DNA of 64,000 bases from Planctomycetota bacterium. GTDB lineage: Bacteria > Planctomycetota > UBA8108 > SXIK01. Below, piece after piece: positions 34,959 through 48,365 of the stretch. The notes beneath the pieces are model-generated. The model searched no databases. It saw only the letters and a program-made list of their open reading frames with translations, and was not told where the DNA came from. Both the position numbers and the translations under genes were made by a program. The first letter of the stretch is position 1, and each line of letters opens with the position of its first letter. Where the stretch lies: contig OZ244999.1 in NCBI GenBank assembly GCA_965223265.1, positions 6,304,001 to 6,368,000 on the forward strand, written 5' to 3'.

Positions 34959-36983
34959 TCAAGGTCGTTCCGGACGCTCCAGCCGAAACTCATTTCGCTG
35001 TGCGTCGATCGTGTACTTGAAGTGTTGCAGAAAATTCAGTCCGAGCAGAGCCGTGTCGGCACCAACACTTGCAGGTAAGACGAGAACCCGCAAGTTACGG
35101 ACACTGTAGCCCTGTAAGCTGACCGAACGCATCTGGATGAGTGGAGTGCTGATGACCCCCCCTGCCGTTCGGACATTGACGCGCTCTGCACGGCGTAGGT
35201 CATAGCCCAACTGTTCTGCTAGCTGCCACGGAATCGCCGTGTAAGTCGCGCCCGTATCGATGATGAAGCTGAATTCGTCACGACGGCCATCGACGACAAC
35301 ACCGGCGCGAAGGGTTGAGCTCCCCGGTGCGATCGGAATCACGACGGCATCGCGACGACGCAGCGCGTCGTCGATACGACGCAGCAGCGTGTCGACGGCG
35401 TCAGCAACCCCGGAATCTAAAGCCCTTGCTTGCTGCAGAAGCAGCACAGCGTCGTCAAAGGCTTCAAGGTCCACGTAGAGGCGCGCCAGCTCGACTTGCA
35501 AAGCCGCGGAGTTTGGCAGCTGCTCGATCGCTTCGATCAACGCCAACTCCGCGAGACGAACGTCTGACACCGCGATCGCCTCTCTTGCACTTAAAAGATA
35601 GGCGTGTTCGACAAGCTGTTCGAGCGTTGCGCTCGGTCGCAGCTGGCGCGCTTGAAGCAACGCTGCGATGGCCTCGTCAAACTGACTCAAGTGGAGACAC
35701 GCTTCGCCGTAGGCTTGCCACAACCCCGGGGCGTCGTCGTAGCGGACGAGTGCAGCATCGGCGACCGCTAGCAAGTCCTCCCACATCGCCAAGCGGGCCA
35801 AACGTGCGATTTCTTCGCCATAACTCGTGCGCAGCAGACGCTCGGCCTCCTCAATCGTCGAGGCGTCGGGTGCGTCCACAAATCGCCGTTCGAGTGCGCG
35901 CACCATGAGACTGACGGCGTCCGCCCATTTCTTCTGACGGATCGCTTCCTTGCCGCGCTCGAAGAGATCGGAGAAAGTGCCGGCATAGACACGGTCCGTG
36001 AGCTGCTGCAGCGTCATAGAGACAGGAAAATCCGCCAGGCGAGCGAGGGCCGCGGCGGAGTCGACTCTCACATTCGGCTGATCAGGTACTGCCACTCCGT
36101 CCACGGCGCCGCCGTCTTCGCTCTTGGCGACGCGCCCACAGAGCCCTATGAGCGTCGCGTTGCGATCCACCACGGCGAAAGCGTCGTCGAGCGATGCGCC
36201 AGAGCTTGAGACGATCCCACGCGGAACGCGGTCGATGGCGCTGCGCTCAACACGCTCGAGGCTGGCTCTGATGGGCGTCGCCGCGCCTCCGAACGCGACC
36301 ACGTCGGCCGGCGTCTCGATCATCTCCAAACTCAGGCTGAGAATCTCTACCCAGGGATCGTCACGCGACTGACCAGCAAGCCTCACGAGTGCCTGATTCG
36401 AATCGTCATCACTGCCTACGAGGCCGACGACATCGACCGACTCCGACTTGCGACTCAGGAACCTCGCGGTGGCGCTGTACGCGCCGAGGAGAGGAGAGAA
36501 ACGACACAAAACGACTCCCCCGGCGCCGACCACGACGCCGCGCATCTCGCGCAGAGGCTTCCCGTTCGCGTCGCGCAATTCGAGAACGACGACGCTCGGG
36601 ACAACGGTTTCGCCCACCTGACGCAGAGACAGAGGCGGCGCTTCCTGCTCCTCGACCGACTCAATGGTGACACCCTCACGCCAATTCTCAGGGATCTCGT
36701 CACCGTCCGGCTTGAGCGCGGGTCGCTCGGTTGAAACCCGGTTACTGTCGTTGTGCAGTGAGGCGGATGAGCTGTCTTCTACGGCTCCATTGCGCAAGAC
36801 GTAGAGGGCGCCACCAAGAAGCAGCAGGAGAACCGCGAGCAACGCGAATGGCCAAACGCCACGGTTCGAACGGACCGCCGGCTGGCGCGGTTGCGGCTGC
36901 TGAGGTGTCGGGATCCGGACCCCGCAGAAGCTGCAGTAGCGCGACGATTCCGCACACGTGTTTCCGCAGCTCGGACAGCGCAT
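34959..36983 (-). CDS. Zn-ribbon/TM/TPR protein with C-terminal retropepsin-like (clan AA) aspartic protease
   Basis: CPSC..CSFC, a TM helix, TPR helices, FIIDTGATYTAI and ALLGLNFL. Confidence 0.85.
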   Translation of the reverse strand: MRCPSCGNTCAESSRYCSFCGVRIPTPQQPQPRQPAVRSNRGVWPFALLAVLLLLLGGALYVLRNGAVEDSSSASLHNDSNRVSTERPALKPDGDEIPENWREGVTIESVEEQEAPPLSLRQVGETVVPSVVVLELRDANGKPLREMRGVVVGAGGVVLCRFSPLLGAYSATARFLSRKSESVDVVGLVGSDDDSNQALVRLAGQSRDDPWVEILSLSLEMIETPADVVAFGGAATPIRASLERVERSAIDRVPRGIVSSSGASLDDAFAVVDRNATLIGLCGRVAKSEDGGAVDGVAVPDQPNVRVDSAAALARLADFPVSMTLQQLTDRVYAGTFSDLFERGKEAIRQKKWADAVSLMVRALERRFVDAPDASTIEEAERLLRTSYGEEIARLARLAMWEDLLAVADAALVRYDDAPGLWQAYGEACLHLSQFDEAIAALLQARQLRPSATLEQLVEHAYLLSAREAIAVSDVRLAELALIEAIEQLPNSAALQVELARLYVDLEAFDDAVLLLQQARALDSGVADAVDTLLRRIDDALRRRDAVVIPIAPGSSTLRAGVVVDGRRDEFSFIIDTGATYTAIPWQLAEQLGYDLRRAERVNVRTAGGVISTPLIQMRSVSLQGYSVRNLRVLVLPASVGADTALLGLNFLQHFKYTIDAQRNEFRLERPERP

Positions 36984-37119: not shown

Positions 37120-38313
37120 TTATCGCGCAGCGGAAAACTCAAGCGTACCCGCACCGACGAGAAACGCGCTGTATCTCCCATTCTCGGGCCGATTGAGATC
37201 GAGCTCGAACTTCATGGGCTGAAGCGCATCCACGCCAGCACGCAGCCACTCTGCAAGATCACGAGCCAGCAGCACGACGCCGGCTGGCTCCTGGCCACGA
37301 TCGGGGGCTGGAATCAAGGCGCCCAACTCCCGGTAGAGAATCGGAACCAGGGTGCCATCCTTTACCGGATCGAGGATGGCCTCCCGCACCGTACGGGCAA
37401 GCTCATCGCTGCTACCCGAGAATTCAGTGCGAACGGTGAACGAGACATGTCCGTCGCCATGAAAATCACCGACGGCCTCGACACTTTTCCACCCGGAGAG
37501 TAACACGTCATCGCTCGTTAAATCCACGAAGAGCGGGCTCGGTCGCGCAGCAAACTCGAATCCTGCACGGCGTCCCTGTGGCGCGCCTGAGAGGAACGAA
37601 GCTGCGAACTGCGACTTCGGCGCAAGGTTTTTCAGACTCAAGTCGTCCGGACGTGCCAAGGCGAACGGCAAGGAGCGGGCCCTTTGACGCTCGAGCTGAA
37701 GAGCCGCGCGCAAGTAATGCCGAGAGGTCGAGAGGAAAACGAAATCACCCGCCCCAGTAGCACAGAACTCGATCGCTGGGTTGATCAGAGAATACAGGCA
37801 GGTCAGCTCGACGTCACGACGCAAGGCGGCGTCGAGCTCTGCAGCTGGGATTCGCGTTGCCGCAGCGAATAGCGCCTCGCGAAGGGAGCTAAGGATCTTG
37901 TCACGATTCTCCGATCCGACGTCAAAGGCAGCGAGCCACTCGCGGTGTCGGCCGTTGAACCGCGCTGCGACAACAAACTCCCTAGAAATCAGTGGCCACC
38001 AGTCGGTCTGCGCGAAAACGCCTCGGAAGAGTTGAATCTCCTTCTTGCGCAGCTTTAGCTCTTCGCCGCCCGCACGCTGGAGCAGATACCGCCCCCAACC
38101 GTCCAGAAACGACGGCTGTGCTAGAGCATCACGCAGGGCGGTTATGCGAGCCTGCACTTCTTCCTGAGGTGCATCCGGGAGAACAACACGAAGGTAGAGC
38201 TCAGAATCGGCTGGAACGACGTGCGCCAGGGACGCCCCGGCAGACACTGCGGAGCGCGTCGCCGCGACGATGAGAATCGCAGCGAACAGTTTTTTGACGC
38301 CGCTTGGTGACAT
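37120..38313 (-). CDS. Hypothetical exported protein
   Basis: Signal-peptide-like N-terminus (MSPSGVKKLFAAILIVAA), then LAHVVPADSELYL. GGAG RBS before the ATG at 38313. Confidence 0.6.
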   Translation of the reverse strand: MSPSGVKKLFAAILIVAATRSAVSAGASLAHVVPADSELYLRVVLPDAPQEEVQARITALRDALAQPSFLDGWGRYLLQRAGGEELKLRKKEIQLFRGVFAQTDWWPLISREFVVAARFNGRHREWLAAFDVGSENRDKILSSLREALFAAATRIPAAELDAALRRDVELTCLYSLINPAIEFCATGAGDFVFLSTSRHYLRAALQLERQRARSLPFALARPDDLSLKNLAPKSQFAASFLSGAPQGRRAGFEFAARPSPLFVDLTSDDVLLSGWKSVEAVGDFHGDGHVSFTVRTEFSGSSDELARTVREAILDPVKDGTLVPILYRELGALIPAPDRGQEPAGVVLLARDLAEWLRAGVDALQPMKFELDLNRPENGRYSAFLVGAGTLEFSAAR

Positions 38314-38417
38314 ATCATCGCTCCATAGTCCACGCCGTGAACATCTTGTCGTGATTCTCCGACTCAAGCGTGCATTTGCAGACAGTGTCGCGAGCTTCAC
38401 GCGTGCGAGAATCTTGA

Positions 38418-39410
38418 TCAACTGTACATCCATTCAAGAATCGCTTTTTGCGCATGCAGGCGGTTCTCCGCTTGGCGCATCACCACCGACTGTTGAGAGT
38501 CCATCACCTCGTCCGTGACGACGACGTTACGCCGCACCGGTAAGCAATGCATGAAATACGCCCGCCGCGTCAGCGACATGACCTCCTTGTCGACGATCCA
38601 GTCACCGTGTCGAGCGCGGAGTTCGCTCTCCGCCTCCGCATCTTCGTAACGGGACAGTCCAGCCCAAGCCTTGGCGTAGATCACGTCTGCGTCGCGGGCC
38701 CCTTCATGTCGATCGTGGGTCACCCGCACACTTCCTCCCGCCTTCTTCGTGAAGTCTCGCGCTAAATCCATGATGCCGTCGTGCAGTTCGAACCCAGGAG
38801 GATGCGCCAGCGTTACATCCATGCCGACGCGCGTGGCGGCAAGAAGGATAGAGTTCGCAACCGCCATCGGCAACGCACGTGGATGGCTAGCCCAGGTGAT
38901 GCTGATCTTTCGCCCCTTGAAGCCTTCAAACAGCTCGCGGACCGTAAGCAAGTCTGCCATCGCTTGACATGGATGGTAGACAGCCGACTCCATGTTGAAC
39001 ACGGGAATCTTAGCGTGCTCCATAAAGGATGAAAACGTGCGGTCGAGCAAATCGTTCTCACGGTTCACGCCACGTGCAAAGCAGCGCAGACCGACCCCAT
39101 CGAAATAACGTGACAGCACCCCCATGGCCTCTTGCACGTGCTCGGAACTCTCGCCATCCATTCTCTTTCCGAACTCAGTTTCGAGCTTCCAGAGCGTCTG
39201 CCCTTCCAGATTCGTCACACCAGCGGCGAGTTGTCGGATGGCAACCTCGAAGGAACACCGTGTCCGCAGAGATGGATCGAGAAAAAGGAGGCCGATTTGC
39301 TTGTTCTCGAGTCCCCGGGTGTACCGATTCTCTTTGTGATAGAGCGCACGATCCAAGAACGTGTCGATCTGAGCTGGAGAGAACTCGTTCAGACTGTAGA
39401 AGTGACGCAT
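38418..39410 (-). CDS. argF: N-acyl-ornithine carbamoyltransferase (ArgF' type, probably N-succinyl)
   Basis: PSLRTR, MDGESSEH, NMESAVYHPCQ, HPRALPMAVANS and HCLPVRRN: AOTCase/SOTCase-family motifs rather than classical OTC. Confidence 0.9.
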   Translation of the reverse strand: MRHFYSLNEFSPAQIDTFLDRALYHKENRYTRGLENKQIGLLFLDPSLRTRCSFEVAIRQLAAGVTNLEGQTLWKLETEFGKRMDGESSEHVQEAMGVLSRYFDGVGLRCFARGVNRENDLLDRTFSSFMEHAKIPVFNMESAVYHPCQAMADLLTVRELFEGFKGRKISITWASHPRALPMAVANSILLAATRVGMDVTLAHPPGFELHDGIMDLARDFTKKAGGSVRVTHDRHEGARDADVIYAKAWAGLSRYEDAEAESELRARHGDWIVDKEVMSLTRRAYFMHCLPVRRNVVVTDEVMDSQQSVVMRQAENRLHAQKAILEWMYS

Positions 39411-39580: not shown

Positions 39581-40759
39581 TCACGCAGCGAAAGCCTCGA
39601 ACGCATCAAAGAAGGCAGACCATTCCGCCGCTGTCGCTGTCAGCGGTGGCAGCAGGCGCAAAGTGTTCGGTTCGTCGGCTTTGCCGACCAAAATGCGCCG
39701 CTGCACAAGATGTTTATGGAGCTCCGACGCGGGCTGCTCACACTCGACGCCGATGAGGTAGCCGAGACCGCGCACGTCACGGACGACGCCGCGCCCGATC
39801 ATGCCTCGAAGGCGCTCGATCGCTTCAGCTCCGAGGCGGGCCACCTTGGCGAGGAGCTCTTCCTTGATGATCGTTCGATAGGTCGCCGCCACCGCGGCTG
39901 CCGCGAGCGGTCCACCGCCGAACGTGCTGCCATGGTCGCCTACCTTCACCGCCTCGCTGATCTCGCCGCTTGCGAGTACAACACCGACGGGAAAGCCTCC
40001 GCCGACGCCCTTGGCCGTGGTCACCAGGTCTGGCTCGACGTCCCAATGTGCTCCGGCGAACCACTTTCCGGTTCGACCTGTGCCCGTCTGGACCTCGTCG
40101 AAGATCAACTGGATCCCGTGGGCTGTGCAGTAGTCCCGAAGACCGCGGTAGTAATCGGGCTCCGCCATGTAGACGCCCCGCATGCTCTGCACGGGTTCGA
40201 GCAACACGGCGGCAACGTCGTCGGGTGGCAGCCGCTGGACTGCATCGAGATCACCGAGTTCGACGAAATGCGTGCAACCGACGAGGTTTTCCTGAAACAT
40301 GTTTCGCAATCGCGGACTCCACGTCACGCTCAAACTTGCGATGGTGCGGCCATGAAACCCTCCCTGCATGGCGACCACGGTCGAACGAGCGGTGTGCTTG
40401 CGTGCCAGCTTGAGCGCAGTCTCGTTCGCTTCAGCGCCCGAGTTACAGAAAAAAACGGTGCGCATGGACGTGTAGGAATGTTCGACCAGTAGCTCCGCCG
40501 CCTCGGCACGTTTGGGATGAAAGCAGACGTTCGAATAGAAATCGAGCTCGTCGAGCTGACGCTTCAAGGCGGCAACCCAGGCTGGATGCGAGTGCCCGAG
40601 AAGGGAAACCGCATGGCCACCGTAGAAATCGAGGTAACGATTGCCGCTATCATCCCAGACGTAACAACCCTCTCCCCGCACAAGCGCGAAAGGGAACTTG
40701 CCATAGGTCGGCAGGAGAAACTGTTTCTCCTGTTGGTAGGCTTCTTTGCTTTGGTTCAT
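39581..40759 (-). CDS. argD: Acetyl/succinyl-ornithine aminotransferase (class III)
   Basis: FCNSGAEANE, FHGRT, IFDEVQTGTGRTG and TTAKGVGGGFP; located in the arg operon. Confidence 0.92.
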   Translation of the reverse strand: MNQSKEAYQQEKQFLLPTYGKFPFALVRGEGCYVWDDSGNRYLDFYGGHAVSLLGHSHPAWVAALKRQLDELDFYSNVCFHPKRAEAAELLVEHSYTSMRTVFFCNSGAEANETALKLARKHTARSTVVAMQGGFHGRTIASLSVTWSPRLRNMFQENLVGCTHFVELGDLDAVQRLPPDDVAAVLLEPVQSMRGVYMAEPDYYRGLRDYCTAHGIQLIFDEVQTGTGRTGKWFAGAHWDVEPDLVTTAKGVGGGFPVGVVLASGEISEAVKVGDHGSTFGGGPLAAAAVAATYRTIIKEELLAKVARLGAEAIERLRGMIGRGVVRDVRGLGYLIGVECEQPASELHKHLVQRRILVGKADEPNTLRLLPPLTATAAEWSAFFDAFEAFAA

Positions 40760-40896: not shown

Positions 40897-41958
40897 TCAT
40901 ACGTATCCGGCAGGAAGTCTCAAACCGGTCGTCTCCGGCAAACCGAAGGCATAGTTAAAGTTTTGAACTGCTTGGCCGGCAGCTCCTTTACCCAGGTTGT
41001 CGATGGCGCTGAAGACGACGCTGCGGTCTGTCTCCCCGGCGATGCCAATCACTGCACGCGGACCTCCTTGCACCCAGCGCAGCTCGGGCGATCCAGAGAC
41101 GACGGACACGAGAGGTGCGTCGTCATAGGCCGCGCGAAATAGGCTCTCGACAGCATCTCGCCCTAGGCCAGGAACGAATGTTGTCGCGAAGATGCCGCGC
41201 ACGAGCGGGCCGGACTGCGGCACAAAGTGGATCTTGAAATCTGTGTCCGTAAGCGTTTTCAGAAGCCCCTCGACCTCGAGCAGATGTTGATGCACGAGCG
41301 GCTTGTAGGCTCGGACGTTGCTCGCACGCTCAGGGTGGTGCGTTGTCTGCAGCGGCTTGTTTCCGGCACCCGATGACCCCGTGAGCGCCGCAACGAAAAC
41401 GTCGCCGCGTAGTTGACCGGCCGCCGCGAGTGGCGCCAAAGCGAGATTGACTGCCGTCGCAAAGCACCCCGGATTCGCAATCAGCCGTGCGCCCGCAAGC
41501 TGTTCTCTACGGTACTCCGTGAAGCCGTAGACGAATTCGGCGAGTTGATCAGGCGCGACGTGCTCACGGCCATAAAACTTCTCGTACGCCGCAGCGTCTT
41601 CACTGCGGAAATCACCGCCGAGATCGATGAAGACGACACCCTGGTGCTCGCGCGCAAGCCTTGGGATGACATCCTGCGAGCTATTGTGCGGCAAGCAGAC
41701 GAACACCGCCTGCGTCTCGCTAATTCGCGCCGACGCCGAGTCAAGATCGATGAACGTCAAATCCAGAAAGTCGCGGAGATTCGGCAGCACACCGCTCACG
41801 TGATTGCCCACCCGCGCATTCGCGCTGATCCAGCGCACGTCGACGCGCGGATGGCCGACCAAGTAACGGAGGATCTCTCCACCGATGTAACCCGAGGCTC
41901 CCAGAACACCGACCGGAATGACCGCGCCGGGTTCGTTCGTCGTGTTTGTCTGTTGCAT
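40897..41958 (-). CDS. argC: N-acetyl-gamma-glutamyl-phosphate reductase
   Basis: GASGYIG, IANPGCFATA, GSSGAG and IDNLGKGAAGQAVQN. Confidence 0.95.
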   Translation of the reverse strand: MQQTNTTNEPGAVIPVGVLGASGYIGGEILRYLVGHPRVDVRWISANARVGNHVSGVLPNLRDFLDLTFIDLDSASARISETQAVFVCLPHNSSQDVIPRLAREHQGVVFIDLGGDFRSEDAAAYEKFYGREHVAPDQLAEFVYGFTEYRREQLAGARLIANPGCFATAVNLALAPLAAAGQLRGDVFVAALTGSSGAGNKPLQTTHHPERASNVRAYKPLVHQHLLEVEGLLKTLTDTDFKIHFVPQSGPLVRGIFATTFVPGLGRDAVESLFRAAYDDAPLVSVVSGSPELRWVQGGPRAVIGIAGETDRSVVFSAIDNLGKGAAGQAVQNFNYAFGLPETTGLRLPAGYV

Positions 41959-42039
41959 CAAGATTCTCCAGCATCGAATGCGACATCACCCGAGTGGGTG
42001 CCGGCGATCGTGCGCCGGTTGTCATTCGTGCGAATAGCG

Positions 42040-43071
42040 TTAGATTCCGAGCTTGCTCCTGACGAAGCGAGCCAGCTCTTCGGGGCGTTTGTACGCGTTG
42101 ATGGCCGGTGTCCCAAGCTCACGATCAAGCAAATCGACGCCGGCGCGATTGTCGGTGCAAGGCCCGGAGAAGAGATCGATCCCGATCCCCCGCTGCGCCA
42201 GAAACTGCGCGCCTCCCCACGCACCCACAAGATCGGCGGCGCAAAAGGCGTGCATCTGAACGAATCGCTTCAGCTCCTCGTCTTGCAGAATATCGGTGAC
42301 CCCATAGTCACCGAGGATTCCGTCTCCGAGCTCAAGTGCGACCAGATCCGGAGCCCCGCGTGAAAGCGAAGCAATCAACGTCTTTGCGATGGTGACCAGC
42401 TCGGCGGCCGCCAAGCTAGCGGTCGACGCGTAGCCGACGTCGAGAAACGAGGCAGTCGCCGCAGCGCCATGGTCCTCCATCGCGATGAGATCTCTCAAGC
42501 AGGCGATCCCGGTGACCTTACCACCGGCAATCGCCAGGCCCTCCTTCGAAAGCTCTTGGATGAGCTCCGCCAAGAACAGCGTCTTCCCGGAGTCCATCCC
42601 TGTGCCGCTGACGGCCAGAATCGGGGGCACGTCGAGATCCGCGATCGTCTGCGCCGCTTCGATGCTGCCGTCACTTAGCCGCACGATGCGTCCATCACGA
42701 ACAGGCATGCCCAGCACCTCACAGGCGACTGGGACGCCGAAGTCCATATGGTCGCTGGAGCTGACCCCAAGAACGCCACCGCGGTTGAGCAGCTGCAGCG
42801 TATCACCGACTGCGAGTGTCGCCGGTACGTCGCCGCAAAAACCGCGCAGCGCACGACGACGACCGAGCGCGCCGACGAAGAGGTCGCCGCGAAAAATCTT
42901 CGCCATGCGGCCATCCGCTAGCTCGAGTTGGCTGTAGACGCGCTTTTCGCGGAGTGCCCGTACGACAACCGTGTGACCGGCGTGCGCCTCGAGATCGTCT
43001 GTCAACTCGATTTCCTTGTCGAAACCAAGTCGCGACACGACAGACGCAATTTTGTGAACTTTGATCTTCAT
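42040..43071 (-). CDS. DUF1611-like P-loop protein within the arg operon
   Basis: GTGMDSGKT Walker A, GGKVTGIACLRD, LELGDGILG and N-terminal LELADGR..GDLFVGALGRR. ATG at 43071; alternative 43083. Confidence 0.75.
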   Translation of the reverse strand: MKIKVHKIASVVSRLGFDKEIELTDDLEAHAGHTVVVRALREKRVYSQLELADGRMAKIFRGDLFVGALGRRRALRGFCGDVPATLAVGDTLQLLNRGGVLGVSSSDHMDFGVPVACEVLGMPVRDGRIVRLSDGSIEAAQTIADLDVPPILAVSGTGMDSGKTLFLAELIQELSKEGLAIAGGKVTGIACLRDLIAMEDHGAAATASFLDVGYASTASLAAAELVTIAKTLIASLSRGAPDLVALELGDGILGDYGVTDILQDEELKRFVQMHAFCAADLVGAWGGAQFLAQRGIGIDLFSGPCTDNRAGVDLLDRELGTPAINAYKRPEELARFVRSKLGI

Positions 43072-43138
43072 CGCTGCATCCATGCATCGGCGCTACGGCG
43101 ACGACGCGTACGGAAAACGAGTTGCACCGCGCGTCAGC

Positions 43139-44368
43139 TCATCCCGTTGCGTCCGTGGTGTGGCCCCCCGCCTGGCGATAGAGCCGCGAGGGAATCGCCA
43201 TCATCGTGCTGAATCCGCGCACATCTTCGCCGCTCCAGAGTTTTGGCATCTCACCGTAGACCCCTGATGCGCCGTGCATCATGCTGTTGGGACTGCGCAC
43301 GGCTTGGACGTCGAACGCTCCCGCCGCGAGTCGCACGCACGCATCGCCGTCGACGCGATCTTGCGACGAGTCAATCAGTGCTTCGATGTCACGCAGCACC
43401 GGCTCAAACGCGTTGCCTTCATGGATCAGCTTGCCGTAGAACTCCGCCATGTGATCTTTCCAGAAACGCTGCCAAGCAGTCGTGGTAATCTTCTCAAGCT
43501 CGCGGTGCGAGTGGATGAGCACCTGGGCAGCGCCGGCTTCGAACGCGATGCGCCCCTTGATTCCGAGCACCGTATCGCCAATGTGAATCCCAAGGCCGAC
43601 GCGATGCCGCCGGCACAGGTCGCCGAGCTTCTGTACGAGTGTGACACCGTCCATGTCGACACCGTTCAGCGCCGTCGGCACGCCGCCCTTGAACGTGATT
43701 TCCACGATCTCCGTTTCCGTCGTCGCCGGCACGCTGACCGCTTGATCATAGAGCGAGTCGGGAATCTTGCTCCACGGGTCGTGCGTCTCGCCGCCGCCGA
43801 TCGTCGCACCCCAGAGCCCGCTGTTGATCGAGTACTGGCGCACCGACTTGTCGATTTCGACGCCACGTTCGGCGAGAAAATCGAACTCTTCATCACGTGT
43901 TAGCTTCTCGTCACGAATCGGCGTCAGAACCGGCACCCCCGGCAGCAGCACCGCGAAGGCAATGTCGAATCGCACTTGGTCATTGCCCGCACCCGTGGAA
44001 CCATGCGCCACGGCCGCAGCGGCTTCGCGCTGGGCGACCTCGGCGATGATTTCCGCCTGCACGACGCGCTCCGCCGCGACGGCGAGCGGATAGACGGCGC
44101 CCCGGAGAACGTTCCCTTTGATCAGGTAGCTGACGTAGCGATCGAAGACTCGGCCGCGTCCGTCGATCGTCTCGTGCGCCAGGACACCGAGACGCCGCGC
44201 GCGCGCCTCAATCTCTTCCAGCTCTTCTGCGCCGAACCCGCCCGTATCGACCGTGACGGTGACGACGTCGTAGCCCTTCTTTTCCCGCAAGTAGGGAATG
44301 CAGTAAGACGTATCCAGTCCGCCGGAATACGCCAGGACGACCTTCTCTTTCCTAGTCATTGTTGTCAC
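43139..44368 (-). CDS. argG: Argininosuccinate synthase
   Basis: VLAYSGGLDTS, HGSTGAGNDQVRF and GIKGRIAFEA. Confidence 0.96.
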   Translation of the reverse strand: MTTMTRKEKVVLAYSGGLDTSYCIPYLREKKGYDVVTVTVDTGGFGAEELEEIEARARRLGVLAHETIDGRGRVFDRYVSYLIKGNVLRGAVYPLAVAAERVVQAEIIAEVAQREAAAAVAHGSTGAGNDQVRFDIAFAVLLPGVPVLTPIRDEKLTRDEEFDFLAERGVEIDKSVRQYSINSGLWGATIGGGETHDPWSKIPDSLYDQAVSVPATTETEIVEITFKGGVPTALNGVDMDGVTLVQKLGDLCRRHRVGLGIHIGDTVLGIKGRIAFEAGAAQVLIHSHRELEKITTTAWQRFWKDHMAEFYGKLIHEGNAFEPVLRDIEALIDSSQDRVDGDACVRLAAGAFDVQAVRSPNSMMHGASGVYGEMPKLWSGEDVRGFSTMMAIPSRLYRQAGGHTTDATG

Positions 44369-45770
44369 CTATTCCTTCGCTGGCTGTGTCTTCCTCATGC
44401 GCCGACTCTGTTAGAAGCTTGCGCACGCGCTGGATCTGACTGCGCACCTGCGCCGGTGCCGTGCCGCCGACGACGGTCTTGTCCGCCAGCGCCGCTTCGA
44501 TGCGCAGCGCGTCGAACACGTCTGCGGCGAACTCTTTGTGAACATCCTGGTAGTCACTGAGCTGCAGCTCCTCGAGTTTCGCGCTCCGCGCCTCGGCGAG
44601 TCGAACGACCCGGCCGACGACGCCGTGGGCCTCACGGAACGCCACGCCCTTGCGCGTCAGGTAGTCCGCCAGCCCCATGGCGTTGAGGAACCCGCCGTCG
44701 AGCGCTGCTTCTGTCCGCTGGCGATCGACCTGCAAGGTTTCGATCGTGGCCCGAAACACCGGCAAGATCAGCTCGATCGTGTCGACGGCATCGAAGAGAC
44801 CTTCCTTGTCTTCCTGGAGATCCTTGTTGTACGTGAGCGGCAGTCCCTTGAGCGTCGTCAGCAGTCCCAGGAGGCTGCCGAACACACGCCCACTCTTTCC
44901 CCGGGCAAGCTCGCACGCATCCGCGTTCTTCTTCTGCGGCAACATCGAGCTGCCCGTGGTCACCGAGTCGTCGAGCGTGGCAAAACCGAACTCCGCCGTC
45001 GACCAAAGGATCAGATCCTCACTCCAGCGCGACAGGTGCACCATCAAAAGCGCCGCAGCGTGAAGAAAGTCGCAGACGAAGTCGCGATCACTGACGGCAT
45101 CCATGGAGTTGTGCGTCAGGCGCTCGAAGCCGAGCTCGGAGCGCAAGAGATCTCGATCGATGCCAAACTGATTGCCAGCACACGCGCCCGATCCGAGCGG
45201 ACACGCATCGCTCTGGTCCGCGGCCCACAGAAACCGCGTGCGGTCGCGCTGCAGCATCTCGGCGTAGGCGAGAAGATGATGCGCAAGGAGTACTGGCTGC
45301 GCGCGCTGCAGGTGCGTGTAGGCTGGAATGACGACGTCGATGGCCCGCTCGGCGGCATCAGCAGTCGCCAGTATGAGGCTGCGCAGTGAAGCGGCCACCT
45401 CCTTGCTCACACGTTTGACGTAAAGCCTCAAGTCCGTCGCGACTTGGTCGTTCCGACTGCGTCCGGTGTGGAGTTTTTCCCCCGCGGCGCCGGCAATCTC
45501 TGTCAGCCGCGATTCGAGGTTCATATGAATGTCTTCGAGCTCGCGCGAGAACGCGAAGCTGCCCGCTTCGATCTCTGCGAGCACTTGACGCAGACCTTCG
45601 CGAATCGAGGTCGCCTCCGCCGACGAAATGAGCCCTCCCTGCTCGAGCGCTTTCGTCCACGCCAGACTGCCCGCGACGTCTTCGCGGTAGAGTCGCTGGT
45701 CAAAATCGATCGACGCGTTGAGTCGCGCCATCGCTCGAGTGAGGCTCTTGCCGAATCGTTCGCTTCGCAT
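44352..45770 (-). CDS. argH: Argininosuccinate lyase
   Basis: LHTGRSRNDQ, YTHLQRAQP, TGSSMLPQKKN and YNKDLQEDKE. Confidence 0.97.
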   Translation of the reverse strand: MRSERFGKSLTRAMARLNASIDFDQRLYREDVAGSLAWTKALEQGGLISSAEATSIREGLRQVLAEIEAGSFAFSRELEDIHMNLESRLTEIAGAAGEKLHTGRSRNDQVATDLRLYVKRVSKEVAASLRSLILATADAAERAIDVVIPAYTHLQRAQPVLLAHHLLAYAEMLQRDRTRFLWAADQSDACPLGSGACAGNQFGIDRDLLRSELGFERLTHNSMDAVSDRDFVCDFLHAAALLMVHLSRWSEDLILWSTAEFGFATLDDSVTTGSSMLPQKKNADACELARGKSGRVFGSLLGLLTTLKGLPLTYNKDLQEDKEGLFDAVDTIELILPVFRATIETLQVDRQRTEAALDGGFLNAMGLADYLTRKGVAFREAHGVVGRVVRLAEARSAKLEELQLSDYQDVHKEFAADVFDALRIEAALADKTVVGGTAPAQVRSQIQRVRKLLTESAHEEDTASEGIGDNND

Positions 45771-45774
45771 GAGG

Positions 45775-46782
45775 TCAACTCTCCCCCGTCGGCGGTGACT
45801 CTGGTGACGATGACGGTGGTGCGGCGGATGCGTCGTTCGCTCCCGACTCGGCAGTCGCGTCGAGATCCTTCAAGCGATCGCGATAGATCCGCTCCTCGTC
45901 GCGATCGAGAATCATCGTGCCGGTGCCGCGCACGGTGAACACCTCGCACAGCAGAGCGTTCGGCTCGAGACCGTTGATGATGTGCGCTCGCTTCACCCCA
46001 CCACGCACAGCGGCGGCGGCCGTCGTCAACTTAGGGATCATCCCATCCGAGGCTTCGCCACGCTGAATCACGGCGTCGATGTCTTCGAGCGTGAGGTACG
46101 AGTAGCGCGTCGAGGGATCGTTCAAGTCGCGGTACACCCCACTCACATTAGAAAACAAGAACAACTTCTCAGCAGGGAGCGAAGCGGCGATCTCACTGGC
46201 GATGGTGTCGGCGTTGATGTTGAGCACCTGCCCGTCATCGCTACAACCAAGCGAAGCGACGACCGGCACGAATCGCTCCTCGAGAAGAACGCGCAGGACA
46301 TCGGGGCGCACGCTCTGAATGTCGCCGACGTTCTGGAAGTCGACTTCACGCTCGCTCCCGCTAGCATCGTCGTACACTTTCCGGGGCGGCCGTTTGATCG
46401 CTTGGACGAGATCGCCGTCGACGCCAGAGAGTCCGACTCCTGGGGTGCCGTAGCGACGCAGCGCCGCCAAGATATCGGTGGAGATCTGGCCGGCAAAGAC
46501 CATCTTGGCGAGCTCGAGCAGACGGTCATCGGTGATGCGCCGTCCCCCAACCTTCTTGGCTTCGATGCCGAGGCGACCAGCGATGTCGGAGAGCTGCGGC
46601 CCACCGCCATGGATGATCACTAGCCGGATGTTGAGCTCGTGGAGCAAGGCGATCTCTTCGGCCAGAGCGCTGAGGCGCTCCGGATCGGAGACCACTTCGC
46701 CGCCAAACTTGATCACGAAGATCTTGTTGCGGTACTCCTTGATATAAGGGAGCGCCTGCTTGAGGAGTTTGATGTCTTCCAT
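45775..46782 (-). CDS. argB: Acetylglutamate kinase
   Basis: QALPYI..FVIKFGG, IHGGGPQ, LNINADT and GMIPKL. Likely ATG at 46782. No C-terminal GNAT domain. Confidence 0.94.
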   Translation of the reverse strand: MEDIKLLKQALPYIKEYRNKIFVIKFGGEVVSDPERLSALAEEIALLHELNIRLVIIHGGGPQLSDIAGRLGIEAKKVGGRRITDDRLLELAKMVFAGQISTDILAALRRYGTPGVGLSGVDGDLVQAIKRPPRKVYDDASGSEREVDFQNVGDIQSVRPDVLRVLLEERFVPVVASLGCSDDGQVLNINADTIASEIAASLPAEKLFLFSNVSGVYRDLNDPSTRYSYLTLEDIDAVIQRGEASDGMIPKLTTAAAAVRGGVKRAHIINGLEPNALLCEVFTVRGTGTMILDRDEERIYRDRLKDLDATAESGANDASAAPPSSSPESPPTGES

Positions 46783-47279
46783 AGTATCGAGCCGATTGCC
46801 GGCGAATTCCAACGATTGGACAAGGACGAAGCCCGCATGGTGGCGAATGCACCGCGTTAGGTCAAGGTGACGAGCTCGAGTCGGCCGCGCCGCCTTGAAT
46901 GGGTCCGAACCGCGGCAGAATCGATCCGCGGCGAACCAATCCTCCGGGTGAGGATCGAGCCCCCCGGTAAATTCAGCGCCGCAAGTCAGCGCCCGTTGGT
47001 CAGCGCCGGTCACAGAGACCGCCGGCGGGCGGGCCACCCGTTGCCGAGCGCGACAAGCCGCACTTGCTCTGAGATCGATTCGTCATCGTCGCGATCGGCG
47101 ACGCAAAGGACAAACAAGCTGACGACTTGCCGGAGGTCCGCTCCGGGCGCGGCACCGGTTCCACGCCGCACACTACAGTCGCGCTCTGCAGTGACGTGAG
47201 TGGCCGACACCCACGGCCGCGCGGGCGCTGAGAAGCTTCGCTGCACCCACGAGTGAGGCCGCGCGCGCTGCTCGCGCTC

Positions 47280-47345
47280 TTATCGACGACGTCTAAGTCG
47301 GTTACGTCTAAATCGGTGCAGTCGAATCGACCGTCGTGTCAGCAT
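47280..47345 (-). CDS. Putative Arg-rich leader peptide of the arg operon (MLTRRSIRLHRFRRNRLRRRR)
   Basis: ATG to TAA ORF of 21 codons with 11 Arg, between a promoter and argB on the same strand. Confidence 0.7.
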   Translation of the reverse strand: MLTRRSIRLHRFRRNRLRRRR

Positions 47346-47399
47346 GGCTCGGGTCGCTTGGTGGGTTCTTCGGCGCACCGCGCCGGTCGGAAACCCCAC

Positions 47400-47428
47400 G
47401 TTATATCCGTGCTCTCGAGTCACTCCAA
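47400..47428 (-). promoter_or_regulatory. Sigma-70 promoter of the arg leader/operon
   Basis: Minus strand TTGGAG-N17-TATAAC; the -10 is about 55 nt upstream of the leader ATG. Confidence 0.6.
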
Positions 47429-47588
47429 GACTTTTCCGGGTAGTCGCGCCTGCGGCCAACGTGATTCTGCTGGCGCCGGGCGTTAAAAAAGGAGAGTGAG
47501 CGGGTAGAATCCGTCTCCCAACAGAGAGCAAACTCGGCGCCCGCGCGCAGAGCGAGTAGCGCAGATCCCCGAGCAAAAAGGAAACCCC

Positions 47589-48365
47589 ATGGCCCACAAC
47601 CTCCTGGCCGGTAAGAAAGGTCTCGTTCTCGGTGTCGCCAACAAGCGAAGTATCGCCTGGGCAGTCTCGCAAGCTGCAAGCGACAACGGTGCGGAGCTGG
47701 CGTTCACGTATCTGAACGACAAACTCAAGGACAAGGTCGCAGCGCTGGCGAAGGATCTTCCGGGCAGCTCCCCTCTCTATCCGTGTGACGTCACGCGCGA
47801 CGAGGAGATCGACGCTCTCGGCGAGAGCGTGCGCCGGGACTTCGGCACGCTCGATTTCGTCATCCATTCGATCGCTTTCGCCGACCGCAAAGACCTCGAA
47901 GGCCGTTTTGTCGACACCTCGCGCCAAGGTTATCACTTGGCGCAGGACGTCAGTAGCTACTCGCTCACCGCCACCGCACGCGCCACCGCGCCGCTCATGG
48001 AAAGCGGCGGCAGCATCGTCACCATGACCTACCTTGGAGCCGAACGCGCCATCAAGAACTACAATGTCATGGGAGTCGCCAAGGCGGCGCTCGAAGCGTC
48101 CGTGCGCTACTTGGCATCAGAGCTAGGCGAGCGTCAGATCCGCGTCAACGCCGTCTCGGCAGGCCCGATCAACACCCTGGCAGCACGCGGCATCGCCGGC
48201 TTCACCGACATCCTCGACCATGTCGCACAGGTCGCGCCGCTGAGGCGCAACGTCGAGGTCGAAGAGGTTGCCAACACGACCGTCTTTCTCGCCAGCCCAC
48301 TCGCCAGCGGCATCACCGGCGAGACGGTCCATGTCGACGGTGGCTTCAACATGGTAGGGCTTTGA
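47589..48365 (+). CDS. fabI: Enoyl-ACP reductase FabI
   Basis: GVANKRSIAW, HSIAFA, YNVMGVAKAALEASVRYL and SAGPINTLAA. Confidence 0.96.
   Translation: MAHNLLAGKKGLVLGVANKRSIAWAVSQAASDNGAELAFTYLNDKLKDKVAALAKDLPGSSPLYPCDVTRDEEIDALGESVRRDFGTLDFVIHSIAFADRKDLEGRFVDTSRQGYHLAQDVSSYSLTATARATAPLMESGGSIVTMTYLGAERAIKNYNVMGVAKAALEASVRYLASELGERQIRVNAVSAGPINTLAARGIAGFTDILDHVAQVAPLRRNVEVEEVANTTVFLASPLASGITGETVHVDGGFNMVGL

Follow-up and report, generated by a model that had tools for sequence, protein, structure and literature searches.

The N-succinyl route of arginine synthesis is known from Bacteroidetes (PMC7311316), where a GNAT protein of the BT3761/ArgA2/Cabys_1732 type is the N-succinylglutamate synthase of a succinyl-type pathway with argF' (PMC7311316, PMC9026213). 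In the passages of these sources available to us this protein has the GNAT fold, uses acyl-CoA and has genetic support in B. thetaiotaomicron; Ashniev et al. 2022 propose other replacements for ArgA, namely ArgA2 (GNAT) and ArgA3 (an M20-like protein), and the starting enzyme of arginine synthesis goes unnamed in many bacteria that evidently produce this amino acid, a gap stated for Bacteroides (PMC7311316) and for Steroidobacter (PMC13759103). Closest to the present case is GapMind 2026 (PMC13759103; PLoS Genetics, 12 Nov 2026, also bioRxiv), the available text of which predicts a first-step role for the Steroidobacter protein ACG33_RS14135, described as "a very distant homolog" of D-glutamate acetyltransferase that is "virtually always" in arginine operons. 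Here we describe gene X (42040..43083, minus strand), which lies in a 64,000-nucleotide stretch of the genome of a Planctomycetota bacterium (contig OZ244999.1, positions 6,304,001 to 6,368,000; hereafter the window) within an operon of seven co-directional genes, argB-argH-argG-X-argC-argD-argF'. By elimination and from its context we propose that X is the missing first-step enzyme of this pathway, most likely one that forms N-succinyl-L-glutamate, and we put the probability of this assignment at roughly 0.65. The reaction would be that of the BT3761-type protein, whereas X belongs to the P-loop proteins and lacks a GNAT domain, and it is neither ArgA2 nor ArgA3.

As far as the available passages of GapMind 2026 (PMC13759103) go, ACG33_RS14135 resembles X in being a hypothetical protein encoded in arginine operons, in its distant structural relationship to DgcN (7XRJ), in the absence of classical ArgA alongside its family, and in a neighboring ArgF' that lacks Glu at position 92, as does the one beside X. 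We found X family members in argG-X-argC clusters of Steroidobacteraceae and Woeseiaceae (S. denitrificans was not among the matches listed), and because these share the cluster position we take ACG33_RS14135 to belong to the X family, an assignment made from position rather than alignment. X is also carried by the cultured Lentisalinibacter salinarum X77 (L300). The first-step role of X is thus not new in print, and the new arginine pathway variant suggested by the initial annotation does not stand either, as the N-succinyl route was already described in Bacteroidetes. To the available GapMind 2026 passages the present analysis adds that X and ArgJ are complementary in two phyla, that many of the clusters carry an M20 gene, and that X has catalytic residues of BioD type, from which the ATP-ligase alternative arises; that text holds no ArgJ or BioD comparison and no assay, and it names neither Planctomycetota nor Acidobacteriota, a word search of the six supplements included. 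Because the role is in print only as a prediction, the value of the window lies in its confirmation in a second, distant lineage. The full-text literature on N-succinylglutamate synthase or synthetase yielded only GapMind, Ashniev 2022 and the B. thetaiotaomicron genetics, with no assayed P-loop enzyme among them.

To establish what this genome has and lacks for arginine synthesis, profile searches were run over the whole genome, a single contig of 9.18 Mb whose nearest relatives at the window are labelled Planctomycetota. ArgJ (PF01960) gave no match anywhere, and the classical ArgA model (TIGR01890, cut-off 202.85) matched nothing but the kinase portion of ArgB, with 153 bits. The NAT domain profile PF04768 was also without a match in the genome, but it matched nothing in the control genomes either. 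A Pfam scan found no GNAT domain fused to ArgB or ArgH. The locus as first read from the DNA is thereby borne out: an ATG-started open reading frame (ORF) with a GTGMDSGKT P-loop between argG and argC, in a run that lacks argA, argJ and any GNAT fusion. The further statement that X is the only unassigned gene of the run needs qualifying, since two flanking ORFs (47280-47936 and 37120-38433) also have no Pfam or NCBIfam family; these recur in only 4 and 1 of 80 loci, close relatives all, whereas X recurs in all 80. No deacylase gene was found in the window operon by Pfam and NCBIfam scans. The best ArgE-like M20 gene of the genome lies far from the operon and scores 263.6 bits to TIGR01892, below the cut-off of 297.7, and a clear orthologue of the M20 deacylase carried by related clusters (below) was not found, the genome's own M20 proteins being only 25-31% identical to it.

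The gene neighborhood of X was then compared across genomes. Four scans of contigs representing one genome per species gave at least 585, 289, 570 and 571 X relatives in overlapping sets, from which 317 loci were kept, corresponding to 288 unique copies. Where the contig left room, argG lay directly upstream of X in 237 of 262 unique loci and argC directly downstream in 224 of 259, and of the 236 unique loci that had room to either side, 232 held at least one arg gene. The argG-X-argC core is constant across phyla while the order of the other arg genes varies. By record title the loci belong to more than 10 phyla, among them Planctomycetota, several Acidobacteriota classes, Chloroflexota, Elusimicrobiota, Gemmatimonadota and Cloacimonadota, with further loci in Wallbacteria, Bdellovibrionales, Alphaproteobacteria and Gammaproteobacteria (Woeseiaceae and Steroidobacteraceae). 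A few of these taxon labels are probably bin errors. Labels that clash with the relationships of the gene (L052/L091, L183, L038/L073) include that of one "Pseudohongiellaceae" contig, which is probably mis-binned because its X copy is 82% identical to a Phycisphaerales copy, that of one contig labelled Woesearchaeota and those of several labelled Clostridia that cluster with Acidobacteriota; all probably have the same origin.

Many related clusters differ from the window operon in a gap of ~1.1-1.4 kb between argB and argH. We examined 24 such clusters; the gap yielded an ORF in 23, and all 23 encode M20 peptidases of the ArgE/DapE type. A cluster of this kind (argG-X-argC-argD-argF'-argB-M20-argH) provides the kinase, reductase, aminotransferase, carbamoyltransferase, deacylase, synthetase and lyase together with X, and because the M20 deacylase fills the argB-argH gap, step one alone is left without a gene. 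No GNAT gene was seen to travel with X in the neighborhood listings.

If X replaces the enzyme of step one, it should seldom share a genome with another such enzyme, and the initial annotation had suggested anticorrelation with argA and argJ as a check. In a sample of 201 Planctomycetota genomes at least 80% complete, with X counted at E<1e-90 and ArgJ above its cut-off, argC was present in 161, X in 65 (all with argC) and ArgJ in 82. X and ArgJ occurred together in 1 of the 65 X-bearing genomes (G099), in which the X copy is divergent (40% identical) and sits among unrelated genes, and argC and argB lie on the ArgJ contig. Within families f9 and f25, X and ArgJ alternate among genera. Among 151 Acidobacteriota genomes, from which both counts are assumed to be drawn, 38 carried X, 36 carried ArgJ and none carried both; these figures include unpublished genomes (G225 and G250 with X, G348 with ArgJ), without which they become 36 and 35, again with no overlap. 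The ArgJ half of the check thus came out as expected, whereas the ArgA half is uninformative in Planctomycetota because classical ArgA scored above its cut-off in none of the 201 genomes.

The likely identity of the acyl group comes from ArgF'. The codon of its Ser89 (39144..39146, minus strand) aligns with Glu92 of the X. campestris AOTCase, the position that separates acetyl from succinyl specificity; we fixed this column with the PDB mutant chains 3l05 and 3l02, which differ from 3m4n only there. In the 221 ArgF' proteins found beside X (loci not deduplicated) the residue is Ala in 115, Thr in 94, Ser in 5, Pro in 3, Gly, Val and Ile in one each and a gap in one, and it is never Glu. According to the passages available of GapMind 2026 (PMC13759103) and GapMind 2020, citing Shi et al. 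2007, Ala, Pro, Ser or Val at the Glu92 position leads to preference for the succinyl substrate. With Ser in the window and no Glu among the relatives, N-succinyl intermediates are favored, and judged from this residue the acyl group is most likely succinyl.

Taken together, the context, the elimination of other candidates and the complementarity with ArgJ point to X as the enzyme of the first step, where it would protect the α-amino nitrogen of L-glutamate by acylation. The predicted role is that of a replacement for ArgA and for the synthase half of ArgJ, neither of which has any sequence or fold relation to X. The initial proposal that X makes N-acyl-L-glutamate is therefore retained as the best-supported reading, given the argG-argC position, the M20 clusters and the ArgJ pattern, with the activity itself standing as a prediction. 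Several observations count against it. The genome has 17 GNAT (PF00583) matches elsewhere, any of which could be a stand-alone ArgA. The counts of X and ArgJ describe a pattern rather than a test statistic, because related genomes are not independent, and the same anticorrelation would equally follow if X served another step of the argF' route. Eighteen Planctomycetota genomes with argC lack X, ArgJ and classical ArgA alike. Thr, the residue of 94 of the 221 ArgF' proteins, is not among the specificity-switching substitutions (Ala, Pro, Ser, Val) reported in the available passages, and GapMind 2026 (PMC13759103) itself lists its prediction as not experimentally confirmed. The 18 genomes are G008, G027, G028, G037, G040, G058, G066, G082, G090, G094, G135, G145, G149, G172, G178, G185, G186 and G190, several of them single-contig or 99-100% complete, and because they carry argC without X or ArgJ a further solution to the first step is likely in Planctomycetota.

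We examined the protein for what it might reveal of the chemistry. X is a real, conserved and widespread gene, with 2069 relatives among 8000 candidates scored and 1264 homologues at E<=1e-3, each representing one 50%-identity cluster, and its AlphaFold model has a mean predicted local distance difference test (pLDDT) score of 97.3. Pfam and NCBIfam assign the protein to no family at E<=1e-3, its sole Pfam match at E<=10 is MobB (E 0.045), and no GNAT or ArgJ match was found in either collection; all 120 listed relatives are likewise without a precomputed Pfam domain. When 64 diverse members were searched, weak matches appeared to CbiA in 40, MobB in 37, DUF1611 in 35 (best E 1.3e-5) and AAA_26 (PF13500) in 14.

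The model divides into two domains. Residues 1-148 (42640..43083, minus strand) form an N-terminal all-β domain that reaches a pLDDT of 93.3 when modelled alone and in which Ser-14, Gly-36, Glu-54, Gly-58, Gly-74, Arg-76, Pro-87 and Asn-100 are invariant in the family alignment. It has no convincing counterpart in the PDB (best VIA-align Z 4.0, to LexA/signal-peptidase-like chains), Foldseek returned nothing at E<=1e-3, and 47 members searched with this domain gave no Pfam family; such weak or absent matches are no proof of a new fold. Residues 149-347 (42043..42639, minus strand) form a C-terminal P-loop domain of the BioD/DUF1611 type, as judged by VIA-align and hhalign. Its P-loop, GTGMDSGKT (residues 160-168; 42580..42606, minus strand in the translation), aligns with Gly-8 to Thr-16 of E. 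coli BioD, and Gly-166 and Lys-167 are invariant in 64 sequences, with Thr-168 kept in at least 90%. An invariant Lys-189 within GKVTG (42517..42519, minus strand) aligns with Lys-37 of E. coli BioD and with the lysine of the WKP motif in the BioD alignment, and the invariant Glu-251 of LELGDG (42319..42336, minus strand), a Walker-B-like acidic residue, aligns with the invariant Glu of the BioD motif IEGIGG.

X had initially been labelled a DUF1611 protein, on which basis DgcN, a DUF1611 member, was the model for its activity. The label fails: hidden Markov model PF07755 gave no match to X even at E<=10 (gathering score 25 bits) and found a different gene in the genome (C1:9121336-9121908, 219 bits). 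This true DUF1611 gene (L002:1453-2736, minus strand) carries PF07755 and PF17396, as do all 120 of its relatives, and scores 193.6 bits to DgcN 7xrj; its ORF of 427 residues includes ~80 extra N-terminal residues, and some sources name its relatives D-glutamate N-acetyltransferase. The profiles PF13500 and TIGR00347 also gave no match to the X protein, and TIGR00347 finds the genome's own BioD elsewhere. By fold, the P-loop domain of X is equally close to BioD and to DUF1611/DgcN, with VIA-align Z scores of 16.7 for the DUF1611 structure 2g0t (176 residues, root mean square deviation 3.1), 16.7 and 16.5 for BioD (3of5 and 1a82), 16.2 for CTP synthase, 15.7 for 2obn and 14.9 for DgcN 7xrj (183 residues). 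By profile it is nearer BioD: hhalign of the X family gave E 2.4e-4 (probability 44%, 160 columns, with the Lys and Glu columns matched) against an alignment of 25 BioD sequences, compared with E 0.022 (probability 2.1%, 172 columns) against DUF1611. X is thus not a DUF1611 member by hidden Markov model, motif or architecture, and is at least as close to BioD.

The motifs draw the same distinction. DgcN (DUF1611; PDB 7XRJ; EC 2.3.1.312) shares with X the fold of the P-loop domain, the motif order P-loop, xTG, E-G-x-G and, according to its PDB title and EC number, action on the amino group of glutamate, which is what we propose for X. The DUF1611 P-loop, however, reads GxDCSVGKM in place of GTGMDSGKT, so that X lacks the invariant D-C and DUF1611 lacks the Thr, and DUF1611 has TGQTG where X has K-x-T-G and so lacks the BioD-type lysine. 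Of the DUF1611 invariants G-x-D-C-x-x-G-K, T-G-Q-T-G and E-G-Q-G, only G..GK, TG and E-G are common to X. The DUF1611 N-terminal domain (PF17396) is unrelated to the all-β domain of X, which in a profile comparison does not resemble the alignment of DUF1611 (E 0.64), and DgcN belongs to D-glutamate catabolism whereas X belongs to L-arginine synthesis. BioD (PF13500; 1A82, 3OF5), by comparison, is both the best profile-profile match of X and a top structural tie, and the two align at the P-loop GTxxxxGKT, the lysine after strand 2, the Glu of xEGxGG and a G-P motif near the base site. They differ in substrate and pathway, in the extra 148-residue N-terminal domain of X and in the Met that X has where BioD has Thr-11.

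BioD forms a C-N bond through a mixed anhydride made with ATP, and the BioD residues that align with the X motifs are presumably those that bind Mg-ATP and the activated carbamate. By analogy, Mg-ATP would be bound in X by the P-loop (Lys-167 and Thr-168) and Glu-251; the free acid, succinate, would be phosphorylated to an acyl phosphate stabilized by Lys-189 and by the Mg held by Thr-168 and Glu-251; the amino group of glutamate would attack this acyl phosphate; and N-succinyl-L-glutamate, ADP and phosphate would leave as products. The all-β domain, with its many invariant Arg, Glu, Asn and Gly residues, is the probable binding site for the carboxylates of both glutamate and the acid. Because X keeps the BioD-type catalytic set, lacks both the DgcN N-terminal domain and the D-C of its P-loop, and has the better profile score to BioD, we slightly favor ATP-dependent ligation as its mechanism, and do so tentatively, at less than even odds, as the chemistry is read from likeness of motifs. 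It is also conceivable, though again short of an even chance, that X is the first of a new class of amino-acid N-acylating enzymes, in which a ligase of BioD fold that needs ATP (ADP-forming) but no CoA carries a previously unseen all-β substrate domain and joins a free acid, succinate or another small one, to the amino group of L-glutamate by way of an acyl phosphate. Three points speak against such chemistry: by fold X lies as near to DUF1611 (Z 16.7, 15.7 and 14.9) as to BioD (16.7 and 16.5), the invariant Met of its P-loop at the position of BioD Thr-11 is unusual for an ATPase, and the name of DgcN, the sole structurally related enzyme characterized as acylating glutamate, is that of an acetyltransferase (7xrj title; EC 2.3.1.312). 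As BioD acts on carbamate, we also considered whether X might make carbamoyl phosphate; this candidate was rejected, as CarB is present in the genome (1487.6 bits), which covers the supply of carbamoyl phosphate, and the complementarity with ArgJ would be left unexplained.

In the main alternative X fills the same role as an acyl-CoA-dependent N-succinyltransferase like DgcN, converting succinyl-CoA and L-glutamate to N-succinyl-L-glutamate and CoA, and the P-loop would be occupied not by ATP but by the ADP portion of CoA. The available text of GapMind 2026 (PMC13759103) reads the Steroidobacter protein in this way, arguing from a Foldseek match to 7XRJ (E 1.4e-7). The superposition of the C-terminal domain on 7xrj, 2g0t and 2obn, the weak PF07755 matches in 35 of 64 members and the acylation of the glutamate amino group by DgcN all agree with it, whereas the Thr of GKT and the BioD-type lysine, neither of which DUF1611 has, the missing D-C and PF17396, and a profile comparison that favors BioD by E 2.4e-4 to 0.022 do not. 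We regard a CoA-dependent X as only somewhat less likely than ATP-dependent ligation, and as the most credible alternative to it.

The assignment to step one has its own competitor, in which X serves a different step of the argF' route, for example by ArgJ-like transfer of the acyl group from N-acylcitrulline or N-acylornithine to glutamate or as an ATP-dependent helper of a deacylase, with a GNAT protein encoded elsewhere making N-acylglutamate. Since ArgJ acts both as synthase and as deacetylase, two roles are left to fill where it is missing, and the window operon without a deacylase gene, the 17 GNAT matches of the genome and an X paralogue that directly follows an M20 peptidase gene (L331) would fit such a division of labor. 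Against this, the M20 deacylase is already present in all 23 scanned clusters that gave an ORF beside X, the genome has ArgE-like M20 genes of its own (the best being the 263.6-bit match to TIGR01892, cut-off 297.7), no GNAT gene travels with the clusters, and to our knowledge no P-loop enzyme transfers acyl groups between amides. Since a deacylase is already there, step one is preferred to another step of the route, and we consider the latter improbable. That X is instead an NTPase of the SIMIBI class (MinD/HypB/UreG-like) with a regulatory or assembly function, loading metal into the M20 deacylase, for example, or controlling the operon enzymes, is very improbable despite Z scores of 13-15 to SRP GTPases, HypB, UreG, ApbC and MinD (Foldseek, VIA-align) and the MobB match as the only one in Pfam, because the P-loop is of BioD type (GTxxxxGKT with a downstream lysine) and not of G3E or MinD type, the N-terminal domain has many invariant polar residues as in a substrate site, there is no M20 gene in the window operon for it to act on and step one would be left without a gene; some other function of X takes up the remainder.

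With X as the enzyme of step one, its family would close the first-step gap for many bacteria of soil, sediment and water, given at least 570 relatives in each of three scans, and naming this step would allow better prediction of arginine-requiring bacteria and better metabolic models of poorly cultured phyla. Should the BioD-like ATP chemistry prove true, it would be a new reaction type in amino-acid biosynthesis and would place one P-loop scaffold behind enzymes of biotin, cobalamin, CTP and arginine synthesis. A CoA-independent ligase would further mean that step one runs in hundreds of species of more than 10 phyla on chemistry unrelated to GNAT or ArgJ, and that DgcN is a derived, CoA-using branch.

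The gene itself encodes a protein of 347 residues (P0001), annotated as a candidate N-acyl(succinyl)-L-glutamate-forming enzyme. An identical protein, P0002, is recorded with 343 residues, and translation may accordingly begin at the ATG at 43071, four codons further in. Two Aspergillus proteins, P0188 and P0191 (A. melleus and A. avenaceus), belong to the X family at ~30% identity over nearly the full length, one source naming the Aspergillus copy "P-loop containing nucleoside triphosphate hydrolase protein". A copy in a Planctomycetia metagenome-assembled genome (L013:8001-8426) has an in-frame stop in the N-terminal domain, which reflects either a sequencing error or a broken gene.

Planctomycetota also have a subfamily of X paralogues, 26-31% identical, found mostly in genomes with ArgJ or as a second copy beside X, with neighbors unrelated to arginine. 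Six such loci were inspected (L328-L333: G126:C1:2317553-2318431, G107:C13, G007:C112, G090:C10, G002:C238 and G085:C37), and the neighborhoods looked at gave no functional lead; at L331, where the paralogue follows the M20 peptidase gene, an amidohydrolase and a flavin reductase lie nearby. In the Blastocatellia/Pyrinomonadaceae loci (e.g. L042, L069 and L088) argG is only 29-33% identical to that of the window, compared with 44-71% elsewhere, and argH is on the opposite strand; these loci resemble the others in their cluster but carry an ArgG of another subtype.

The remaining genes of the operon, all on the minus strand, were assigned by profile. The first, argB (45775..47037), encodes N-acylglutamate kinase without a GNAT domain (PF00696; TIGR00761 208.8 bits, cut-off 151.3); its maximal ORF has 420 residues and a GTG start, with the kinase domain at residues 105-355. 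The ~104 residues ahead of this domain match nothing, and because relatives align over only ~300 residues the real start of argB is probably internal. It is followed by argH, for argininosuccinate lyase without a GNAT fusion (44352..45770; TIGR00838 569.7 bits), and argG, for argininosuccinate synthase (43139..44368; TIGR00032 304 bits). Beyond X lie argC (40897..41961; TIGR01850 333.2 bits), argD for N-acylornithine aminotransferase (39581..40759; PF00202; TIGR00707 398.7 bits) and argF' for N-acylornithine carbamoyltransferase (38418..39410; N-acetylornithine carbamoyltransferase model NF003384 395.5 bits, cut-off 288), which matches the X. campestris AOTCase structures at E ~1e-78.

Of the two flanking ORFs, that upstream of argB (47280-47936, minus strand) encodes 218 residues that were not recognized (best Atlas score 0.76), and it is kept at 33-40% identity in this position at four related loci of Planctomycetota (L014, L017, L022 and L027). 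The other (37120-38433, minus strand), of 437 residues, overlaps the end of argF' by 16 bases and is signal-peptide-like from Met-41 (MSPSGVKKLFAAILIVAATRSAVSA); its only counterpart is in the closest relative, L014, at 30% identity. Its product is probably secreted and without relation to the operon, and translation probably begins further in. Downstream of the operon, 34959-36983 (minus strand) encodes a protein of 674 residues that combines TPR repeats with an aspartic protease domain of clan AA (retropepsin-like) at its C terminus and has a counterpart of 42% identity at the same place in L014.

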